The notes beneath the pieces are model-generated. The model was given only the letters and a program-made list of their open reading frames with translations, made no database searches and was not told the origin of the DNA. DNA of 29,858 bases from an uncultured archaeon. Its GTDB lineage: Archaea; Asgardarchaeota; Thorarchaeia; Thorarchaeales; Thorarchaeaceae. Both the position numbers and the translations under genes were made by a program. The stretch lies in assembly GCA_964473825.1 (NCBI GenBank), contig CAYYQL010000034.1, forward strand, positions 1 through 29,858, written 5' to 3'. Shown in pieces: positions 9,711-26,523 of this stretch. Within the stretch, counting starts at the first letter, position 1. Every line of letters starts with the position of its first letter.

Positions 9711-12608
9711 ATGACGGCAAGATACGAGACCGCAGTGGAGCCCGACGACGAGTTCGACGGTCCAAAGTCAATTGTCGTTCAGGGTGGCTCTGAGCACAAT
9801 CTCAAGGGCATTGATGTTGTGATTCCCCGTAACAAGTTCACAGTGGTCACAGGCGTCAGCGGTTCTGGTAAGAGCAGTCTAGTCTTTGACACGATTTTTG
9901 CCGAGGGGCAAAGGCGCTTCGTTGAGTCACTGTCTCCTTACGCACGGCAGTTTCTTGGCATGACTGAGAAACCCAATGTGGACTACATGTCGGGACTCTC
10001 ACCATCCATCTCGATTGATCAGAAGAGCGTGAGTCGGAATCCACGAAGTACGGTGGGCACAATAACTGAGATTTACGACTTCCTCAGATTGCTCTATGCC
10101 CGAGTTGGGGAACCGCACTGTCCTGACTGCGGCAAGAAGATAGAGCCGCAGACGGCCCAACAGATCGTTGACCGTGTTCTGATGATACCTGAAGACACCC
10201 GTGTCATGATTCTTGCTCCTATCGTAAGGGGCCGTAAAGGTGAGTACAGGAAGGAGTTCCGCGAACTGGTCCAAAAGGGGTTTGTAAGAGCACGTGTGGA
10301 TGGAGAGGCGATCGATATCGAGGAAGGCCTGTCGCTTGACAGGTACTTCGAGCATACGATAGAGGTCATCATAGACCGCGTTCGAATATCTCCTTCAGAA
10401 CGGTCTCGAATCTCAGAGGCTGTTGAAACCGCTCTTAAGATGGCTGAAGGAGTTGTGACCATCGTCACAGATGGCAGAGAACTGACTCTATCAGAACAGT
10501 TTGCCTGCGTTGACTGTGGTATCAGTCTTCCCGAGATGGAACCGCGCATCTTCTCGTGGAATACTCCACAGGGGGCATGTCCGAATTGTACTGGGATTGG
10601 CGTGATTCGTGAGTTTGACCCTGAGCTGTTCATAGAGGACCCCGAACTTCCTCTGAAGAACGGTGCCATCAAGACAGACAAGTGGCTTCTGAAGCGGAGT
10701 ATCACGAAGAAGCTCGCTGAACGATACGGATTCTCACTTGATACGAAATGGGAGGATCTCACCAAAGAACAGAAACATGTACTCATGTACGGAAGTGGCG
10801 ATGAAACCTTCAAACTGACATGGACAAACAAGAATCCTGATAGCGAGGTCCAGTGGGAGGGACGATTTGAGCGCGCATTTGAGGGCTTCGTATCACGAGC
10901 CAAACGGGTCTACAAGAAGACAAAGTCGAGTAGCCGTCGGAGGGACTTAGAACAACTCATGTCGTCTCATCCCTGTCCCGTCTGTAACCGGGGTCGGCTT
11001 CGGCCGGTTTCACAGGCTGTCACTTTCAATGGATGCTCTATCGTGGAATTGGACAGGATGTCCATCAAGCATCTACGAGAATTCTTTGACAATGTTGACA
11101 TTGATGCAAGGCATGAACCCGTTGCCCGTCCCATATTGAGCGAAATCATGGGTCGCATTGGTTTCTTGGAGGAGGTCGGTCTCGAGTACCTGACCCTTGA
11201 TCGCCTTGCACCATCGCTGGCTGGCGGAGAGGCCCAGCGAATCCGTTTGGCGAGTCAGATTGGGTCTGATCTCGTGGGTGTCACGTATGTATGTGATGAG
11301 CCATCTATTGGTCTGCATGCTCGAGACAACAAGCGTCTTCTCAATTCCCTGATGAAACTGCGAGACCTTGGGAATACAGTCATTGTTGTGGAACACGATG
11401 AGGAAACCATCCGGTCGGCTGACCATATCGTTGACCTTGGACCTGGAGCAGGGTCTGAGGGTGGTGAAGTTGTGGTTTCAGGCACTCTGGATGACGTTCT
11501 CGAGTCTGAGACCTCGATAACAGGTCGGTTCCTGAGAGGTGATGATGGTATCCCCATACCGGTTCAGAGAAGGACACCGAACGGAAGGTTCCTTGAGATT
11601 AGAGGTGCTAGACATCACAATCTGAAGTCAATCGACGTCAAGATTCCCTTGGGACTCTTCATAGCTGTGGCTGGTGTAAGCGGAAGCGGTAAGAGTAGTC
11701 TGATTGTTGAGACCTTGCAGCGTGAGCTTGCGCGGCGGTTCCACAATTCTCAGGAGAAGCCGGGTCCCCATGATGAGATTATGGGGGCAGACCTACTCGA
11801 CAAGGTCATTGTAATCGACCAGAGTCCGATTGGAAGGACCCCTCGAAGTAATCCTGCCACATACACTGGCCTATGGACTCCCCTGCGAGATCTCTTTGCA
11901 AGCCTGCCCGAATCGAAGATACGCGGCTACAAGAAGGGGCGATTTAGCTTCAACACCAAGAGCGGCCGCTGTCACAAGTGCAAGGGTGCCGGGGTTGAAA
12001 CCATCGAGATGCAGTTCCTACCCCCTGTTGAGGTTACCTGTACAGAGTGCAAGGGTAGGCGGTACGACCGTGAGACCCTACAAGTGCGATACAAGGGGAA
12101 GAATATAGCGGATGTCCTCGACATGCGGATTGATGAGGCACTCAGGTTCTTCGAAGGTCTTGGTCCAGTTGAGAGGCGCCTCCAGACACTGCATGATGTG
12201 GGTATGGGTTATGTGAAACTTGGGCAGCCTGCTACGACCCTTAGCGGAGGAGAGGCTCAGAGAATCAAGCTTAGCAAGTTTCTGTCTCGGCCCGCTACAG
12301 GACAGACGCTGATTATGCTTGACGAGCCCACTACGGGACTACACTTTTCGGATATCAAGAAGCTTCTCGAGGTACTGCACAGGCTTGTAGACTTGGGGAA
12401 TACTATACTGGTCATAGAGCATCAGCTTGATGTTGTCAAGACGGCAGACTGGGTTATCGACCTTGGGCCAGAGGGTGGAGAGGAAGGTGGATACCTGGTC
12501 GCCGAGGGATCACCAGAAGATATTGCATCGAATGAGAAGTCCTACACAGGCAGGTATCTTCGACCACTTCTCGGGTTTGATGATGAATCTGGAGGGACGG
12601 ACAAATGA
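9711..12608 (+). CDS. uvrA: Excinuclease ABC subunit A, paralogue 1
   Basis: Two ABC ATPase modules (GVSGSGKSS twice), 'AEGQRRFVESLS', Zn-binding CxxC pairs, UvrB-binding domain 'GFVRARVDG', 'DQSPIGRTPRSNPATY'. Confidence 0.98.
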   Translation: MTARYETAVEPDDEFDGPKSIVVQGGSEHNLKGIDVVIPRNKFTVVTGVSGSGKSSLVFDTIFAEGQRRFVESLSPYARQFLGMTEKPNVDYMSGLSPSISIDQKSVSRNPRSTVGTITEIYDFLRLLYARVGEPHCPDCGKKIEPQTAQQIVDRVLMIPEDTRVMILAPIVRGRKGEYRKEFRELVQKGFVRARVDGEAIDIEEGLSLDRYFEHTIEVIIDRVRISPSERSRISEAVETALKMAEGVVTIVTDGRELTLSEQFACVDCGISLPEMEPRIFSWNTPQGACPNCTGIGVIREFDPELFIEDPELPLKNGAIKTDKWLLKRSITKKLAERYGFSLDTKWEDLTKEQKHVLMYGSGDETFKLTWTNKNPDSEVQWEGRFERAFEGFVSRAKRVYKKTKSSSRRRDLEQLMSSHPCPVCNRGRLRPVSQAVTFNGCSIVELDRMSIKHLREFFDNVDIDARHEPVARPILSEIMGRIGFLEEVGLEYLTLDRLAPSLAGGEAQRIRLASQIGSDLVGVTYVCDEPSIGLHARDNKRLLNSLMKLRDLGNTVIVVEHDEETIRSADHIVDLGPGAGSEGGEVVVSGTLDDVLESETSITGRFLRGDDGIPIPVQRRTPNGRFLEIRGARHHNLKSIDVKIPLGLFIAVAGVSGSGKSSLIVETLQRELARRFHNSQEKPGPHDEIMGADLLDKVIVIDQSPIGRTPRSNPATYTGLWTPLRDLFASLPESKIRGYKKGRFSFNTKSGRCHKCKGAGVETIEMQFLPPVEVTCTECKGRRYDRETLQVRYKGKNIADVLDMRIDEALRFFEGLGPVERRLQTLHDVGMGYVKLGQPATTLSGGEAQRIKLSKFLSRPATGQTLIMLDEPTTGLHFSDIKKLLEVLHRLVDLGNTILVIEHQLDVVKTADWVIDLGPEGGEEGGYLVAEGSPEDIASNEKSYTGRYLRPLLGFDDESGGTDK

Positions 12609-15460
12609 CTGGTCACATCAGAGTGCGAAAAGGAGAGGAGCACAATCTGAAGACGATTGATGTTGATATTCCTCGAGATCGCCTTGTTGTCGTGACTGGT
12701 CCGTCAGGTAGTGGGAAATCTACACTGGTCTTTGACACCATATTTGCGGAAGGTCAACGACGCTACGTGGAGTCATTGAGCTCCTACGCTCGCCGTTTCC
12801 TTGGTCGACTGGATAAGCCGAAGGTTGAGAGGATCACGGGTCTTCCACCGGCGATCTCGATTGAACAAAAGGGTCGCACGAAGAATCCACGGAGCACTGT
12901 AGCCACAAGCACGGAGATTCAGGACTATCTTCGACTCCTCTATGCAAACATTGGCATCCCCCATTGCATGGAATGCGGTGAAGAGATGGAGCAGCTCACT
13001 GCTGACTCTGCAGCCAGATTGCTGCTCGACGAGAATGGTGGCCAGCGAGTGCTTATCATGGCTCCGGTGGTTCGTGACGAAATAGGGAGACATGAGGAAA
13101 CATTCCAGAAGCTGCGCGAGAAAGGATTTGTGCGAGTCCGAGTTGATGGCGAGATTCTTGACATCGAAGGTGTTGATATAGACGGGCGAATGAAACATAA
13201 CATTGACGTTGTTGTAGATCGGCTTGAGGTACGCCACAAGCGCCGTGAGCGGGTTGTTGGCTCCCTGGAGACCGCTCTCGAGGTGGGGGACGGTACTGCT
13301 CTGGTTGTTCGTGAAGGGTCAGATGATCTGGTGTTTGCTGAACAGCTGATGTGCCCCCACTGCGGCGTGCAGTATGACAATCTGACTCCCAAGTCTTTCT
13401 CCTACAACCGACCTGACGGTGCCTGTCCCGAGTGCAACGGTCTCGGTGTGACGATGGATATCCATCCTGATCTGGTCGTTCCTGATGAGGCTGAGCCGAC
13501 AGTCGGCATCTTCAAACGAGCTTTCCGAAACAGGAAGTGGTTGATGCGGAGAGCAAAGGCTCTAGCTGACCAACTTGACTTCTCACTGGACTCTCCTTGG
13601 AACGAACTACCCCGTTCGACTCGTGATATCCTCCTTCTAGGAAAACCTGAGATAGAACTCCATTATCAGACTGAGAGCGATACATCCGAATGGGAAGTCA
13701 AGCGAAAATGGAGGGGTCTGGTCGCCTGGCTCAGAGGAGTCTTTGAGAAGGGTCGAGGCAGTGAGAAGCAATGGTACCAGCGTCTCTCGCAGTACATAGC
13801 CGGGGAATTTGCCAAGAAAGTGACCTGTGCTTCATGCGGCGGCAGGAAGCTGAAACCAGTTTCTCTCAGTGTGACTGTAGGTGGCAAAGCGATAGATGAA
13901 GTCACATCTATGACGATTGAGCAGGCTCTTGAGTTCTTTGAGAGACTCAAGCTGACAGACCGGGACAGAAAGATTGCTGAACTCGTTCTCAAAGAGATTA
14001 TATCCCGACTACGGTTCATGGTTTCAGTGGGGCTTGAGTATCTCAACTTGGACCGACTATCCATGACTCTGTCCGGTGGAGAGAGTCAGAGAATACGGCT
14101 CGCCACCCAAATCGGTTCAGCATTGACAGGCGTACTCTATTGCTTGGACGAACCTTCTATCGGGCTTCATCCGCGAGACATCAATCGGTTGATAGACACA
14201 TTCTACAGGCTTCGAAGCCTGGGAAATACAGTGCTAGTAATTGAACACGACCGAGATACTATCGAAGCTGCTGACCATATCATAGACCTCGGGCCGTTAG
14301 CCGGAGTCCATGGGGGTGAGATTATTGCACAGGGGCCTCCGAAACAGGTTCTGTCAGATCCGAAATCCCTCACAGCTCAGTATCTCGCAGGCGAAAAGAA
14401 GATCCCAATTCCGAAGAAGCGTCGAAAGGGAAATGGTAAAACGATTCTTCTACGCGGCGTGAATACGAACAATCTGCAAGATATAGATGTCATGTTTCCA
14501 CTGGGCAAGTTCGTTGTTGTTTCGGGCGTGAGTGGCAGCGGCAAGAGCAGCATGGTTGACCAGACTCTCTACCGAGCTCTGGCGAAAGAAATCAATGGCT
14601 CGAACGTGGCACCAGGCCCTTATGATTCAATTGAGGGCGTTGAGAACATCGACAGACTCGTACTTGTCGACCAGAGCCCCATCGGCCGGACTCCTCGATC
14701 CAATCCCGCCACCTACACGAAGGTCTTTGATTCTATCCGTGACCTTTTCTCTGAGATGCCTGAAGCAAAGAAACGAGGATATGCACCGGGTCGATTCAGC
14801 TTCAACACCCGAGCTGGCCGATGTGCGAAATGCAAAGGAAGTGGAACGATTCGAGTTGAGATGCACTTCATGAGCGATGTCTACATGACATGCGACGTCT
14901 GCGAAGGGAAGCGTTTCGAGCGCGAAACCTTGGAGGTCAGGTACAAAGGCAAGAATATTACCGATGTACTGAATCTGACAATCGACGAGGCTTTCGAGTT
15001 CTTCTCTGACATTCCGAAGATCGCAGACAAGCTCCAGACCCTGAGAGACGTGGGACTCGGATATCTTCAATTAGGGCAGCCAGCCACTACTCTGAGCGGG
15101 GGGGAGGCTCAGCGCATGAAACTAGCCTCAGAGTTGTCGCGCAGAAGTACGGGAAACACGCTTTACATCCTCGACGAGCCCACAACTGGTCTGGCAGCAT
15201 CAGATGTCCATGTGTTGTTGAAGGTCATTGATAGGCTGGTGTCCATGGGCAACACGGTCATCACAATCGAACACAATTTGGAAGTGATCAAGACTGCAGA
15301 CTGGGTGATTGACCTGGGTCCGGAAGGCGGTTCTGCTGGTGGGCAGCTCGTAGCTGCTGGTACCCCAGAGGACATATGTGATGTATGGAATTCTTACACC
15401 GGCAACCATCTAAGATCCGTGCTGTATGCACATGATGCAATCTACGGTTCGATCTCCTAG
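12605..15460 (+). CDS. uvrA: Excinuclease ABC subunit A, paralogue 2
   Basis: Same full domain set as paralogue 1 (GPSGSGKST and GVSGSGKSS, LSGGESQ and LSGGEAQ, 'GFVRVRVDG'); ATGA overlap with paralogue 1; GGAGG SD at 12591-12595. Confidence 0.98.
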   Translation: MTGHIRVRKGEEHNLKTIDVDIPRDRLVVVTGPSGSGKSTLVFDTIFAEGQRRYVESLSSYARRFLGRLDKPKVERITGLPPAISIEQKGRTKNPRSTVATSTEIQDYLRLLYANIGIPHCMECGEEMEQLTADSAARLLLDENGGQRVLIMAPVVRDEIGRHEETFQKLREKGFVRVRVDGEILDIEGVDIDGRMKHNIDVVVDRLEVRHKRRERVVGSLETALEVGDGTALVVREGSDDLVFAEQLMCPHCGVQYDNLTPKSFSYNRPDGACPECNGLGVTMDIHPDLVVPDEAEPTVGIFKRAFRNRKWLMRRAKALADQLDFSLDSPWNELPRSTRDILLLGKPEIELHYQTESDTSEWEVKRKWRGLVAWLRGVFEKGRGSEKQWYQRLSQYIAGEFAKKVTCASCGGRKLKPVSLSVTVGGKAIDEVTSMTIEQALEFFERLKLTDRDRKIAELVLKEIISRLRFMVSVGLEYLNLDRLSMTLSGGESQRIRLATQIGSALTGVLYCLDEPSIGLHPRDINRLIDTFYRLRSLGNTVLVIEHDRDTIEAADHIIDLGPLAGVHGGEIIAQGPPKQVLSDPKSLTAQYLAGEKKIPIPKKRRKGNGKTILLRGVNTNNLQDIDVMFPLGKFVVVSGVSGSGKSSMVDQTLYRALAKEINGSNVAPGPYDSIEGVENIDRLVLVDQSPIGRTPRSNPATYTKVFDSIRDLFSEMPEAKKRGYAPGRFSFNTRAGRCAKCKGSGTIRVEMHFMSDVYMTCDVCEGKRFERETLEVRYKGKNITDVLNLTIDEAFEFFSDIPKIADKLQTLRDVGLGYLQLGQPATTLSGGEAQRMKLASELSRRSTGNTLYILDEPTTGLAASDVHVLLKVIDRLVSMGNTVITIEHNLEVIKTADWVIDLGPEGGSAGGQLVAAGTPEDICDVWNSYTGNHLRSVLYAHDAIYGSIS

Positions 15461-22807: not shown

Positions 22808-23179
22808 GTGAATGGCTTGTCTAACGGTGGCCGCACTCTTGAAGATGTCATGGTGATTATCAGGGATTTCGTCGAGGAACGCGATTGGACTAGATTTCAG
22901 AAACCGCGTGCGCTGGCAATCTCGGCTGCCATAGAGATGGGGGAGCTTCTCGAACTCTTTCAGTGGAGAACTGATGATGAGATATCCGAGCTTCTCAAGG
23001 ATGACAAGTACCGTGCAAGCCTCGCTGCTGAAATTGCTGATGTCATGATATACCTAATAAGAATCGCTGACACGGCCGGAATATCCCCAAGCGAGGCAAT
23101 CCTGACCAAGATGACCTCAAATCGTGAGAAGTATCCTGCGAAAGACTGCAGGGGAAAGATTCCTGAGAAACTCAAATAG
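22808..23179 (+). CDS. MazG-like nucleotide pyrophosphohydrolase (DCTPP1/RS21-C6 type)
   Basis: 'FVEERDWTRFQKPRALA...EMGELLELFQW...EIADVMIYL...KM..NREKYP'. Confidence 0.92.
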   Translation: MNGLSNGGRTLEDVMVIIRDFVEERDWTRFQKPRALAISAAIEMGELLELFQWRTDDEISELLKDDKYRASLAAEIADVMIYLIRIADTAGISPSEAILTKMTSNREKYPAKDCRGKIPEKLK

Positions 23180-23972
23180 ACTCTGTCAATCTGCGGTAGA
23201 TTTCGGGTCTTCGATCCTTCAACACATGGTTTGTTTCTGTGATATTCTTCTCATCAGCAGCTCGTGGGTCGATGTCAACCACAAGGAGATCAGTAGTTGT
23301 GCGAGACCCCCGTACTAGGACTGTGCCCTGAGGATCGGTGATCTGGGACATTCCTGAGAATTCAAGACCTCTCTCCTTGCCGATGCGGTTTGCTGTTGCT
23401 GTGAACACTCTGTTCTCTATCGACCTTGTCTTCATTGCATCTTGACAATAAGGTAGAACGAGGTTCGCTGGATGTAGTATGACCTGAGCACCTTTCAAAG
23501 CAAGGATACGAGCCATTTCAGGAAAAGCCCAATCAAAACAGACCATTATTCCGTATCTGTGACCTCTGAATCGGAAGACTGGCGGTTCAGCAGTACCCAC
23601 CGAAAACCACTGTTTCTCCTGACCGAAGAGGTGGACTTTTCTGTAGGTAGTGATGTGTTCCCCTGCTCCAAAGGCGACCGCTGAATTGTAGAATGTTTCC
23701 TCCGCCCTCTCACAGATTCCTGAAACAATCAGCCGCCCATTGCTGGACCACTCTCTGAGTAGAGCAGATAGCGCCCCTTCCCCCACAGTCTCTGCTGTTG
23801 CTGTCAGTTCATCCTTGGACCGAAATGCATACCCCGAGTTTGCTAGCTCAGGAAGAATCAGGACTTCGGTGTCCTGAACTGAAGCCTGTTGCAGAGCATT
23901 CTTGATGGCCTCCATATTTTCCGCCACTGAGGCGACATGCGGTTTTATCTGGGCCAATCCTATTGTGACCAT
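23172..23972 (-). CDS. Carbon-nitrogen hydrolase (nitrilase/amidase superfamily)
   Basis: Glu-Lys-Cys triad motifs 'LPEL', 'YRKVHLF', 'VCFDWAFPE'. Confidence 0.93.
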   Translation of the reverse strand: MVTIGLAQIKPHVASVAENMEAIKNALQQASVQDTEVLILPELANSGYAFRSKDELTATAETVGEGALSALLREWSSNGRLIVSGICERAEETFYNSAVAFGAGEHITTYRKVHLFGQEKQWFSVGTAEPPVFRFRGHRYGIMVCFDWAFPEMARILALKGAQVILHPANLVLPYCQDAMKTRSIENRVFTATANRIGKERGLEFSGMSQITDPQGTVLVRGSRTTTDLLVVDIDPRAADEKNITETNHVLKDRRPEIYRRLTESI

Positions 23973-24085
23973 GAGTATCTTACCAAGCTTTGCTCCGGGA
24001 TTCTACCTTCAAAGGTTTTTGTGGGGGAGGCTCCAGCAAAAAGCATTTCACAGGCCTTCATCAATTAGTCTGTGAGGACCAACAG

Positions 24086-24205
24086 ATGAAGAAAGAAGAC
24101 TCTGACCCCTCAGACGCAGAGTGGGCCGATACCGTTGAGTGGCCAGAAGAAGACTGGGGCGACGACTACTGGGACGAAACCGGTTCCGAGAACGGGTACT
24201 TCTGA
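24086..24205 (+). CDS. Acidic Trp-rich micro-protein (39 aa)
   Basis: MKKEDSDPSDAEWADTVEWPEEDWGDDYWDETGSENGYF; GTGAGG SD-like site at 24072-24077; strongly biased composition. Confidence 0.6.
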   Translation: MKKEDSDPSDAEWADTVEWPEEDWGDDYWDETGSENGYF

Positions 24206-24225
24206 CTGGATTTGTGCAGGACAGA

Positions 24226-25062
24226 CTACCGACTGCTCCCTTCTTGTTCCGTCCGGTCTTGTATTGCTTTTCGGCAACGGAGCAGTCGGTTATACGACTT
24301 CCTCAACTGCTTCGAATCATCCCGTTTCCATATCTCTCTTATCAGGTACAGGACTTCTCGTGCCTCTTTCACTCTCGCCATGAGCTCAGAGTAACGGCTC
24401 TTGAGTTTCTTCAGAGGCACTGTATTGTCTTTAATCGTTTCCTGCAAGTCGAGAATCCTACTCTCAAGAGAATTCAGCTGTCCATTGATTGTTGCATCGA
24501 GAGCCATTTCGATCTCTCTATCACTCTTTGGCCCAACCGCTCTGACCCTCGACCATCGGGAAACCTTGGCGTCAATATCCTTCATGGACTCTGCAAACTC
24601 CTTCGGAGTCAGTACTTTTCTTACACTTTCCTTCTGATAGAATCGAGCGATGTCTTTGGACCTGAGGTGGGGGAACAAGACTGCCCCTTTTCTGATACGA
24701 ATATAGGCGGAACGGTTGAGCAGGCGCTGAGTCTTTTTCTTCTGTTGGGCTGTGGGTTCAACAAAGGAATAAGAAATAAGCACGTAGGTCCGACGTCGGT
24801 ATAGTTCAGGGTCAGTCTCTTTAACTCGGGGAATCTCTCGTGCTCTCTTGAGTGTGAGATACCGGAACCTCTGCACATATTCTCGCACTTTCTTGTTCTG
24901 TACTGGAACCCTGTACACTCCTCTAGCCAGTCTTCGGATTGACTTGATCTTGCGTGCACCTCTTCTGAACTCCTTGTCGTCTCCTATAACGACAACGAGG
25001 AATGAAGTACCTGATAGTCTGTCCTCAGTTCGTGATTCCTCAGAAACGTTTCTGTCGTTCAA
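24226..25062 (-). CDS. Highly basic hypothetical protein, possible Cas2/PaaX/ChrB-N-like fold with a helical C-terminus
   Basis: 278-aa ORF, about 25% Lys+Arg by manual count; 'YVLISYSF...KKKTQRLL...YIRIRKGAVLFP'; TTG start with GAGGGG SD. Confidence 0.75.
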   Translation of the reverse strand: MNDRNVSEESRTEDRLSGTSFLVVVIGDDKEFRRGARKIKSIRRLARGVYRVPVQNKKVREYVQRFRYLTLKRAREIPRVKETDPELYRRRTYVLISYSFVEPTAQQKKKTQRLLNRSAYIRIRKGAVLFPHLRSKDIARFYQKESVRKVLTPKEFAESMKDIDAKVSRWSRVRAVGPKSDREIEMALDATINGQLNSLESRILDLQETIKDNTVPLKKLKSRYSELMARVKEAREVLYLIREIWKRDDSKQLRKSYNRLLRCRKAIQDRTEQEGSSR

Positions 25063-25352
25063 TTCATCCCCTCATAGAAGACCGTAAGAATCGTCTGCCA
25101 CTCGTAGGCCGAGTTTCGCTGACTCTTGAAAACCCCATAGGTGACACAAGTGAAGGCCCCTCATTGACTATAATATTATCTTTTCGCTAGAAGTAACTGT
25201 TTCTGGTGGGTTTGAGCGGTTGATTATCTCTTTTCATCAATAAGGGTGCAGTATAGGTCTGGAATTGACCATATGGGGTCTATGAGCAATCTTTCTTCCG
25301 TAGAGCAATCTTAGATTCAAACATGACAGGAGGCCCTGTGGAGGTGAAATAA

Positions 25353-25445
25353 ATGGTCTTTGACGAGGATTTCGACGATGAAGATTCGGATGACGACGAT
25401 TGGGACGACGACGATGAAGATTGGGACGACGACGAGGATTGGTAA
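25353..25445 (+). CDS. Ultra-acidic Trp-repeat micro-protein (30 aa), absent from the ORF track
   Basis: MVFDEDFDDEDSDDDDWDDDDEDWDDDEDW*; perfect GGAGGTGA SD at 25340-25347, 5 nt before the ATG; downstream hairpin and T-rich tract. Confidence 0.75.
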   Translation: MVFDEDFDDEDSDDDDWDDDDEDWDDDEDW

Positions 25446-25475
25446 TTTCTGGTCGCAGTGTCAATCCCAATGGAC

Positions 25476-25519
25476 GGTACGAAGGCCCACAGCTGGGCCT
25501 TCTACCTTTGTTATGTTTT
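25476..25519 (+). terminator. Hairpin plus T-rich tract after the 30-aa ORF (may be shared with convergent MTAP)
   Basis: GAAGGCCCA-CAGC-TGGGCCTTC (25481-25502), extended by GGTA/TACC and followed by TTTGTTATGTTTT. Confidence 0.6.
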
Positions 25520-26378
25520 AGAACAATCCGCCTTTCATGGCGGTCTGACAGGAACATGATGCTCTTTCTGGAATGCTATCAATCATCTCGAATGTCAGCT
25601 TTTTGACCCGCTCAACGTTTTTCGACATGGTCTTCAAGACCATCTCATGAGTAACGTGCTCCTCAGCATGAACGTCATAGTCAGTTGGCATTGAAACATT
25701 TACAAAGCAGATCCCCGCCTCCCGTGCAAGGGCGGCTTCAGGGTAGGCTGTCATACCGATCACTTCCCATCCCTGATTGTGGAAGAACATGGACTCGGCG
25801 GCTGTAGAGAATCTCGGACCGTTGATGCAGACGTATGTCCCCTTTCCATGGACCTTGTAGTCGAGCTCAGCTGCAGTATCGAGGGCCACTTGCCTGAGCT
25901 CAGGACAGAATGGCTCACCAAACGGGAGATGAGCGATTGGTCCTCCTTCAAAGAAGGTGTCCTTGCGTTGCCCGAATGTTCTATCGAATAACTGATCCGC
26001 GATGACAAACTCGCCCAACTTCACGGTGTCAGGTTGGAGGCTGCCACATGCTGCAGGACTTATGATTCTCTTCACCCCCAGTGCCTTCATGCCCCAGATG
26101 TTTGCACGGTAGTTGATTGCGTGGGGCGGAATGGTATGTCCCTTCCCATGCCTGGCCAGAAATGCGAAGCTTCGGCCTCTGGCCTTTCCCACTATGAAGT
26201 TGTCGGAGGCCGCACCATAGGGTGTGAACACCTTGATTTCTATCGGGTCCTCTATCACCGTAGGATCATAGTTTCCACTTCCGCCGAACATACCAATTTC
26301 AATAGGGAGTATTTCGTCAACATCGTCCTGTTTGTTTCTGTCAATGGGTACAAACTCAAGTCTTGGTTCGAATGCCAT
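25518..26378 (-). CDS. mtnP: S-methyl-5'-thioadenosine phosphorylase
   Basis: 'IGMFGGSG', 'TPYG', 'FLARHGKGH', 'INYRANIW', 'GPRFSTAAES', 'IGMT', 'TDYD' (6-aminopurine-type); start set at ATG 26378 with AGGTGA SD. Confidence 0.92.
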   Translation of the reverse strand: MAFEPRLEFVPIDRNKQDDVDEILPIEIGMFGGSGNYDPTVIEDPIEIKVFTPYGAASDNFIVGKARGRSFAFLARHGKGHTIPPHAINYRANIWGMKALGVKRIISPAACGSLQPDTVKLGEFVIADQLFDRTFGQRKDTFFEGGPIAHLPFGEPFCPELRQVALDTAAELDYKVHGKGTYVCINGPRFSTAAESMFFHNQGWEVIGMTAYPEAALAREAGICFVNVSMPTDYDVHAEEHVTHEMVLKTMSKNVERVKKLTFEMIDSIPERASCSCQTAMKGGLF

Positions 26379-26523
26379 AATCTCACCTGTTATCGCTTTG
26401 TGCACTGATAATTCTGCGATACTGTCATTTATAGATGATACGGCATTCCGAGTACCTTGTTCTGGGATAGCGGTGTCACATTTGGTGTGCCCCACTAACG
26501 AGTTGAATTGTTGTGGTGACTGA

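Follow-up and report, generated by a model that had tools for sequence, protein, structure and literature searches.

A deep, conserved gene pair, present across two archaeal phyla, joins a gene for a strongly basic protein (here B) to A2, a predicted micro-gene that is led by a Shine-Dalgarno (SD) sequence and encodes a chain of 25-35 residues, mostly Asp and Glu, with regularly placed bulky aromatics. We describe the pair from a 29,858-nucleotide (nt) contig, the whole of which we call the window, from the genome of an uncultured Asgard archaeon of the Thorarchaeia (label G000; 3.27 Mb, 96% complete). In the window, B occupies positions 24226-25062 of the reverse strand and encodes 278 residues from a TTG start, with 69 Lys/Arg, 37 Asp/Glu, a net charge of +32 and an isoelectric point (pI) of 10.5. 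A2 lies divergent from B on the forward strand (25353-25445), across a spacer of 290 nt (25063-25352), and encodes 30 residues, among them 22 Asp/Glu and three Trp (net charge -22). On the other side of B, tail-to-tail with it and separated by a 20-nt gap, lies a second acidic micro-gene, A1 (24086-24205, forward strand; 39 residues, 15 Asp/Glu, two Lys and no Arg, four Trp, net charge -13). For neither member of the B-A2 pair did we find a name or a Pfam family, yet the pair is conserved across the two phyla.

Linkage of a basic protein and an acidic micro-gene

The evidence for the pair is one of linkage. We assembled 55 distinct B loci, the sources being a set of 30 search hits, a choice of 20 distant Asgard genomes, and Bathyarchaeota-like contigs from metagenomes and NCBI, and in 50 of them an acidic-Trp micro-open reading frame (micro-ORF) lies within 900 nt of B, most often at 166-465 nt. 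An earlier reading of the window, made from its letters alone and here called the sequence-only reading, had proposed that the flanks of B homologues be scanned for micro-ORFs with Asp/Glu-Trp motifs, and the outcome of that scan is the linkage reported here. The 56 linked micro-ORFs are arranged in different ways with respect to B: 39 lie upstream and are divergent, 13 share the strand of B and lie downstream of it, and four are convergent. The divergent layouts have a shared spacer of 120-300 nt. The linkage spans the Thorarchaeia, at least six other Asgard families and the Bathyarchaeota, and besides the micro-ORFs the genes around B differ completely between lineages. Linkage that is kept despite changing orientation and changing neighbours is a classical signature of functional linkage.

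The predicted peptides share a grammar rather than a sequence. Nearly all of the A2-type ORFs in the 50 loci have a GAGGTGA-type SD sequence 5-8 nt upstream of the start codon, which is ATG, or GTG or TTG in about 10 of the 56, and the start is mostly followed by a bulky residue and then Phe (M-x-F). The body consists of runs of Asp and Glu with an aromatic residue, mostly Trp, every 4-7 positions, 38 of the 56 end on a Trp codon followed directly by the stop, and the net charge of the B-adjacent peptides ranges from -12 to -42. A2 itself begins M-V-F, has Trp at positions 17, 24 and 30, ends Trp-stop, and is 73% Asp/Glu from residue 4 on; its SD sequence (GGAGGTGA, 25340-25347) lies 5 nt ahead of the ATG. 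Its Asp codons are mixed (GAC:GAT 10:8), and between A2 and its counterpart in a relative (L003) synonymous and non-synonymous changes stand at 12:3. A profile built from an alignment of 26 A2-type peptides found no match over 86 genomes, A2 itself included, and because low complexity defeats profile search of this kind, we used IUPAC DNA pattern scans instead. An Atlas look-up of A2 returned unnamed clusters only (0.81-0.85).

B is a family without annotation that occurs in Asgard archaea and Bathyarchaeota. It has no match in Pfam (hmmscan, E up to 0.1, also for PaaX_M/ChrB_N), NCBIfam or PADLOC, and no meaningful match in PHROG. An exhaustive HMMER search of 1.84 billion representatives gave 43 relatives at 50% clustering, of which 21 scored below 1e-30; almost all of the 43 have a length of 235-295 residues. 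The closest named ones are "Candidatus Thorarchaeota archaeon" records, and more distant members are annotated as Bathyarchaeota. A 40-member profile of the family matches in 92 of 400 Asgard genomes, including 59 of 85 in the window's own family, 17 of 19 in family f14 and all three in family f4, with further matches in f28, f30 and others. All homologues are strongly basic (net charge +17 to +41, pI 9.9-11.4), and the family alignment has a conserved core, Y-x-L-V-x-Y-x-F...QQKK..QRL..R.P.IRLRPGVLLFP.LR.K. B is present once in G000, its synteny with MTAP, nitrilase and MazG genes is stable across genera, and in three syntenic relatives, where its homologues are 72-88% identical, A1 and A2 are both retained.

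In the window, the three genes stand between a CN_hydrolase gene (carbon-nitrogen hydrolase, nitrilase; 23172-23972, reverse strand) and a PNP_UDP_1 (MTAP-type) phosphorylase gene (25518-26495, reverse strand; both by hmmscan against Pfam), the latter convergent with A2, and beyond these flanks are MazG-like and phosphoribosyltransferase genes. The sequence-only reading had placed the three ORFs, the 290-nt spacer and the two flanking genes in this way, and had estimated net charges of about +32, -13 and -22 for B, A1 and A2; all of the ORFs were located, and counting gave the same charges. The longest ORF of MTAP runs to 325 residues from a GTG, and called orthologues have 286; the true start is probably an internal ATG about 39 codons downstream.

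The arrangement of A1, B and A2 is more than chance. Among the 983 ORFs of 200-350 residues in G000, B alone has a net charge of +32 or above, whereas the proteome averages -5.9. When all 3.27 Mb were scanned in six frames, 14 acidic/aromatic stretches passed the threshold used, A1 among them, and A2, by far the strongest micro-ORF of the 14, has a score of 23, second only to the C-terminal tail of a 277-residue ORF; the background of acidic-Trp micro-ORFs is 3-5 per 3.27 Mb. The TBP of G000 (C92:1058-1657; L089:59-658) also ends in an acidic Trp tail, EDWGDYEEEEWF, so that acidic-Trp segments on DNA-binding proteins do occur in this genome, and long acidic aromatic tails are found on two more G000 proteins without a Pfam family (C4, about 136637-137467; C14, about 12572-13021).

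Spacer signals and micro-genes away from B

In the gap that separates A2 from the 3' end of MTAP stands a terminator-like hairpin (25481-25512, forward strand; 9 bp with six GC pairs and a T-rich tail), so that A2 looks like its own short transcription unit. Ahead of its SD sequence, the upstream region (25305-25347, forward strand) carries the conserved element GCAATCTTAGATTCAAACATG, an inverted repeat AATCT-T-AGATT, which is conserved within the genus only. On the side of B, whose TTG start is preceded by the SD sequence GAGGGGA, a 65-nt non-coding block (25128-25192, reverse strand) is nearly invariant in the genus and includes an A/T-rich, TATA-like stretch (reverse strand GCGAAAAGATAATATTATAG), after which come about 35 conserved nt. 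This block is 95.6% identical over 68 nt to that of L004 and, within the genus, more conserved than coding sequence; it has no match outside the genus, and is probably the promoter of B with the start of a 5' untranslated region of about 95 nt. Rfam gave no match on 23900-25700 (E up to 1). We considered the spacer as a deep cis-element or non-coding RNA and dropped that reading because the conserved blocks stop at the genus border.

On the strand opposite to A2 runs an ORF of 106 residues, rich in Arg and Pro (25237-25557, reverse strand), which we reject as a gene and regard as a compositional artefact: the SD sequence, the start and the Trp-stop end are conserved on the forward strand only, and the antisense frame stays open because GAN repeats leave the opposite strand without stops. 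Similar antisense ORFs of about 100 residues lie over the micro-ORFs of other loci and could be mis-called as genes. As for the peptides themselves, the sequence-only reading had expected standard gene callers to miss them, which holds for the NCBI record of L003, where both are lacking, but not generally, for genes of 30, 31, 38 and 39 residues have been called at these positions in some public assemblies. The locus shows concretely how functional genes can fall under the cut-offs of annotation, called in some assemblies and not in others.

A1 is a lineage-restricted second predicted micro-protein of the same general kind as A2, whose gene stands beside B in only some Thorarchaeia. It has the core motif WPEEDWGDDYW and an SD-like GTGAGGA 7 nt upstream of its ATG, and differs from its counterpart in L003 by synonymous and non-synonymous changes at 11:12. 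The peptide is conserved within the window's genus; ORFs of its type, which are convergent with B and carry PEE[DFY]W, are limited to genera g1, g9, g11 and g15, and a peptide of this type is missing at most B loci. Acidic-Trp micro-ORFs with A1's EEDWGDD are also found convergent with MTAP at other loci (L061:3058-3216(-), L062:2876-3136(+), L066:2843-3052(+), L067:2946-3074(+)). Such a micro-ORF stands beside MTAP where B is absent (g2) or located elsewhere (g6, g13); in g13 (L066), it lies between nitrilase and MTAP, and B is found at another place with an A2 of its own. The MTAP-side spacer therefore seems to be an old home of an acidic-Trp micro-gene in the Thorarchaeia. In genus g12, a second acidic-Trp micro-ORF follows, on the same strand, a MarR regulator and a metallo-beta-lactamase/tRNase-Z-like gene at 2.6-8 kb from B (L064:3032-3121(-), L065:4976-5116(-), L068:3011-3106(-), L069:4965-5123(-)), and g12 genomes in which no B was found have this second copy too. 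The three-gene module put forward by the sequence-only reading is for these reasons redrawn as a B-A2 pair: B and A2 hold together as a conserved unit, but A1 accompanies them in only a few genera, and the peptides have other genomic partners, with micro-ORFs kept beside MTAP and nitrilase where B is absent or elsewhere.

Nor are the peptides exclusive to B; their family is far wider than B, broad and largely unannotated in several archaeal phyla. A DNA pattern for two acidic Trp units occurs in 227 of the 400 Asgard genomes, and the same pattern read backwards, as a control, in almost none. The micro-ORFs of Asgard families f22, f11 and f13 (L072-L085) open with a basic head, M-K-x-G-P-K-K-K, followed by Asp/Glu-Trp repeats (for example L076:1965-2099(-) and L082:2027-2161(+)); the neighbours of these GPKKK-headed forms vary, with DUF72 recurring in two cases and SUI1 downstream of one copy (L075). 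A protein search with a 45-residue Asgard relative of the peptides as the query found no homologue. We extended the pattern scan to the genomes of 185,579 species, and among the matches listed are stand-alone, Trp-ending micro-ORFs in Thermoprotei, Desulfurococcaceae, Ignisphaera, Bathyarchaeia, Thermococcaceae and Thorarchaeota, so that the peptide type is seen in Thermoproteota and Thermococcaceae besides Asgard; the bacterial matches listed lie mostly inside long proteins. The scan also matched short ORFs of tandem EECQEW repeats on Prochlorococcus contigs (L109, L115, L116, L125, L159, L163, L190), in a context unrelated to that of the archaeal peptides.

This distribution bears on the possibility that the peptides are eukaryote-like acidic-Trp linear motifs, with A1 imitating DSS1/Sem1 and A2 the DDW units of WASP and cortactin, so that their targets would be the proteasome, OB-fold or actin-related partners and their adjacency to B would be secondary. 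The likeness is one of motif only: the WPEEDW...YWDE of A1 resembles the FPAEDW...WEDNWDD of DSS1, and the DDW units of A2 resemble the acidic Arp2/3-binding regions of cortactin and WASP. The commonness of the pattern in Asgard genomes, with its near-empty reversed control, is in keeping with such a role. However, the DSS1_SEM1 profile (PF05160) has no match in A1, A2, two orthologues or the whole genome (E up to 10), a result that must be read with the caution that HMMER composition filters may suppress low-complexity matches; the conserved neighbour is B and not a eukaryote-like protein; and, among the matches listed, the same kind of micro-ORF occurs in Thermoprotei, Desulfurococcales and Thermococcaceae, in which such eukaryote-like partners are not known. 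The same peptides in Thermoprotei and Thermococcaceae argue against an actin-specific role, and we consider a linear-motif function very unlikely.

The fold of B and the readings of the pair

The AlphaFold2 model of B, made with the family alignment (pLDDT 90.9, pTM 0.85), predicts a disordered N-terminus, two ferredoxin-like domains of the order beta-alpha-beta-beta-alpha-beta (about residues 20-73 and 92-175) and a three-helix bundle (177-277). In a shape search of the ESM Atlas, residues 80-278 align with ChrB_N/PaaX_M clusters outside B's own family at a template modelling (TM) score of 0.58-0.63 by target and 0.43-0.45 by query (root-mean-square deviation 4.3 over 162-166 aligned residues), and a language-model feature search returned a Cas2/PaaX_M cluster at 0.75, which we treat as a lead only. 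Comparison with the PDB was less telling than this and produced nothing specific. Foldseek gave designed ferredoxin folds as its best match (E 0.002), with weak matches (E 0.015-0.11) to PaaX (8a39, E 0.015), Rv0674 (3kfw, E 0.021) and BAD_0249 (3onq). With VIA-align, three-helix bundles dominate for the whole model (spectrin repeats and similar, Z about 11), and the alpha/beta part folded alone finds only generic ferredoxin-like structures (best Z 7.1; Cas2 5.1-5.5; Rv0674 5.1). At the level of sequence, the B profile met only coiled-coil noise among PDB sequences (E 0.016 or worse), and the PF20803 and PF20229 profiles, searched genome-wide at E up to 10, left the B locus untouched. The winged helix-turn-helix of PaaX is not in the model either, its place being taken by the ferredoxin-like domain at 20-73. 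By its predicted shape, and by shape only, B resembles most nearly the ChrB_N/PaaX_M-type modules; we considered it as a member of that group and do not file it there, because the profiles do not match and there is no winged helix.

This resemblance speaks for a reading of the pair as regulator and target, in which B would be a PaaX/ChrB-like DNA-binding protein that controls the divergent micro-gene, and the peptide would act elsewhere and not on B. The divergent layout with its shared spacer at 39 loci, the inverted repeat upstream of A2, conserved within the genus, and the existence of peptides without B are all consistent with it. Set against this are the missing winged helix-turn-helix and the missing match to PF20803 or PF20229, the 13 loci with a same-strand peptide gene downstream of B, spacer motifs that are not conserved beyond the genus, and a net charge of +17 to +41, far beyond that of usual one-site regulators. 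We judge such a regulatory role to be quite unlikely.

The Cas2-like ferredoxin fold (Z 5.1-5.5) and the position of a small acidic gene next to a larger basic one could also be taken as signs of a toxin-antitoxin or defence system, with B as a toxic nucleic-acid binder or a nuclease of the Cas2 kind and one or two acidic peptides as its antitoxins, and a toxin was among the suggestions of the sequence-only reading. Yet the conserved metal-binding Asp of Cas2 and VapD is not found in the B family, in which strand 1 of domain 2 reads Y-x-[LV]-[VI]-x-Y-x-F, so that the consensus of the family has Y-x-F where Cas2, past strand 1, has its catalytic Asp. B is, moreover, a single-copy gene, vertically conserved in 59 of 85 genomes of its family and set in stable housekeeping synteny between MTAP and nitrilase, with no patchy or mobile distribution and no PADLOC or meaningful PHROG match; the genes are mostly divergent (39) and not co-transcribed, and the peptides persist where B is absent. 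The toxin suggestion finds no support in these observations, and we regard any reading of this type as highly improbable.

The reading that we favour, tentatively and with somewhat less than even confidence, is that the polyanionic peptide binds or masks a polycationic nucleic-acid-binding surface of B. The disordered peptide would lie on this surface with its Trp side chains as anchors, serving as a nucleic-acid mimic or charge chaperone, and would keep B soluble or off RNA or DNA until needed, or compete with nucleic acid for B. B itself would most likely bind RNA or DNA, possibly the ribosome or rRNA, as suggested by its charge, by its domains, which are RRM/ACT/Cas2-like, and by the information-processing genes next to it in other lineages. 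In addition, the bulky residues at their regular spacing may let the ribosome finish so acidic a chain. A charge-complementary partnership of B and A2 is plausible, and the support for an electrostatic partnership is indirect: the charges are universally complementary, the charge of B is correlated, in raw form, with the summed charge of its adjacent peptides (r = -0.59, n = 44), and the TBP tail offers a parallel. The mean charge of B is +37 at loci with two peptides vs +28. A complex prediction of B, with its family alignment, and A2 gave a score of 0.00 in two runs without controls, and counts neither way.

Several observations weigh against this masking of B by the peptide. After independent contrasts on the B tree, the charge correlation falls to r = -0.25 (P = 0.10), and a sign test of charges gives 22 of 35 (P = 0.18), so that charge co-variation, significant in the raw data but not after the contrasts, was set aside as proof. 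No recognised nucleic-acid-binding motif was found in B, and its fold matches are generic. Five of the 55 loci are exceptions to the linkage; two of these are cut by contig ends, two with full flanks (G005 and G007) have no adjacent micro-ORF, and in one (G004) the adjacent acidic ORF lacks Trp. The peptides, for their part, also live apart from B. All five genomes of g2 are without B, and in the two g2 loci examined an A1/A2-like micro-ORF is convergent with MTAP; families f22, f11 and f13 lack B as well and have their own stand-alone micro-ORFs of 40-60 residues. Finally, at six or more Thermoproteota loci and two distinct Bathyarchaeota B loci, a Glu/Asp-Trp micro-ORF of 25-40 residues lies upstream of ABCE1/RLI on the same strand (L172:2094-2198(-), L117:1835-2020(+), L158:265-414(+), L164:3820-3906(-), L178:1798-1875(-), L095:4315-4431(+), L055:4047-4154(+), L056:4004-4084(+)). 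We identified ABCE1/RLI, a factor that splits ribosomes, by Fer4_RLI and two ABC domains; 47-190 nt separate it from the micro-ORF, with L095 as the exception, an RPB9-like gene lying between the two there. In G000, ABCE1 is on another contig than the window.

The ABCE1 context, with at least eight Thermoproteota and Bathyarchaeota loci in all and one Asgard micro-ORF upstream of SUI1, raises the possibility of a device at the level of translation, in which a micro-ORF that is hard to translate would report on ribosome stability, Mg2+ or recycling capacity, and B, and ABCE1 in Thermoproteota, would be factors of translation tied to this ORF. In bacteria and eukaryotes, translation aborts on nascent chains rich in Asp and Glu at the N-terminus, an effect that depends on Mg2+, and proteomes avoid such chains (PMC9718836; bioRxiv 10.1101/2021.02.02.429294); in E. 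coli, bulky residues counteract the destabilisation of the ribosome by these chains (bioRxiv 10.1101/2021.02.02.429294). A2, at 73% Asp/Glu from residue 4, would fall among such chains, and a device of this kind would explain both the periodic Trp and the link to ABCE1. However, the destabilisation is known from bacteria and eukaryotes, not from archaea. In the window and at most Asgard loci, furthermore, no same-strand gene comes after A2, which in the window is followed instead by the hairpin and the convergent MTAP, and so there is nothing to regulate in cis; a regulated downstream gene, the mark of a cis-acting leader, is absent from the window and present in the Thermoproteota relatives in the form of ABCE1. 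That Trp recurs periodically, that the ORF ends Trp-stop and that purifying selection acts across phyla all speak for a functional product. We think a translational device unlikely. With three-quarters Asp/Glu from the fourth codon on, a gene of the A2 type challenges the bacterial and yeast picture of ribosomes that abort on acidic chains, and is a natural test sequence for archaeal ribosomes.

In the Bathyarchaeota B loci (L055-L057, two of these contigs showing one and the same locus), B, micro-ORF and ABCE1 come in this order, which joins the ABCE1 context to the B context. It is conceivable, if rather doubtful in our estimation, that all of the micro-ORFs belong to a single ancient family of micro-proteins that are translated but missed by annotation, that occur in several archaeal phyla and that have a tie to the machinery of translation, either as polyanionic regulators of ribosome-associated basic proteins or as built-in probes of ribosome stability on extremely acidic chains, with the periodic Trp letting translation finish. 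A gene of the RPB9/TFS type is a second recurring information-processing neighbour: a zinc-ribbon gene of this type directly follows B in Asgard family f4 (L041:2879-3268(+)), and in a Thermoprotei genome another separates the micro-ORF from ABCE1 (L095:4507-4854(+)).

Likeness to known systems

We found no description, name or family for B or the peptides in the literature, and the known systems closest to them are each similar in part. Leader ORFs that exploit the destabilisation of ribosomes by acidic nascent chains have been described in E. coli and yeast (PMC9718836; bioRxiv 10.1101/2021.02.02.429294). The micro-genes are like these in being short, extremely rich in Asp and Glu, provided with a strong ribosome-binding site and, in Thermoproteota, placed just upstream of ABCE1; they are unlike them in that the A2 of the window has no same-strand gene after it and that both the pattern of Trp and the Trp at the C-terminus are conserved. 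The system would stand further from anything described if its link to the apparatus of translation holds. The N-terminal module of PaaX and ChrB (PF20803, PF20229; PDB 8a39, 3kfw) may share with the model of B a Cas2-like ferredoxin domain followed by helices, whereas B has one more ferredoxin-like domain at its N-terminus, is far more positively charged, and has no winged helix and no sequence match.

Among acidic mimics, Ocr and ArdA are folded phage and bacterial proteins of at least 100 residues that imitate B-form DNA and are usually carried on mobile elements. The archaeal peptides may resemble them in using negative charge to occupy the nucleic-acid-binding surfaces of basic proteins, but they are tiny, probably disordered and chromosomal. 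DSS1/Sem1 (PF05160) is a small acidic protein with conserved Trp in an acidic context, a DNA mimic and a partner of basic grooves, and the WPEEDW and YWDE motifs of A1 look similar to it; A1, however, has 39 residues against about 70, and is confined to a few genera of Thorarchaeia.

The closest parallel in principle may be that of prothymosin-alpha with histone H1, a disordered partnership of polyanion and polycation in eukaryotes. Both would bring together a short, disordered, extremely acidic chain and a very basic protein, with possible competition by nucleic acid. There is no homology between the two systems, and the archaeal peptides differ in having 25-35 residues and periodic Trp, and in that their genes lie next to that of the putative partner. 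Should the peptides indeed mask a polycationic RNA- or DNA-binding protein, the B-A2 pair would be the prokaryotic counterpart to complexes of eukaryotic chromatin in which polyanion and polycation, both disordered, bind with high affinity, and would sit in the lineage closest to eukaryotes. By this analogy, the masking of B by its acidic neighbour would be, in principle, a variant of known polyanion-polycation partnerships.

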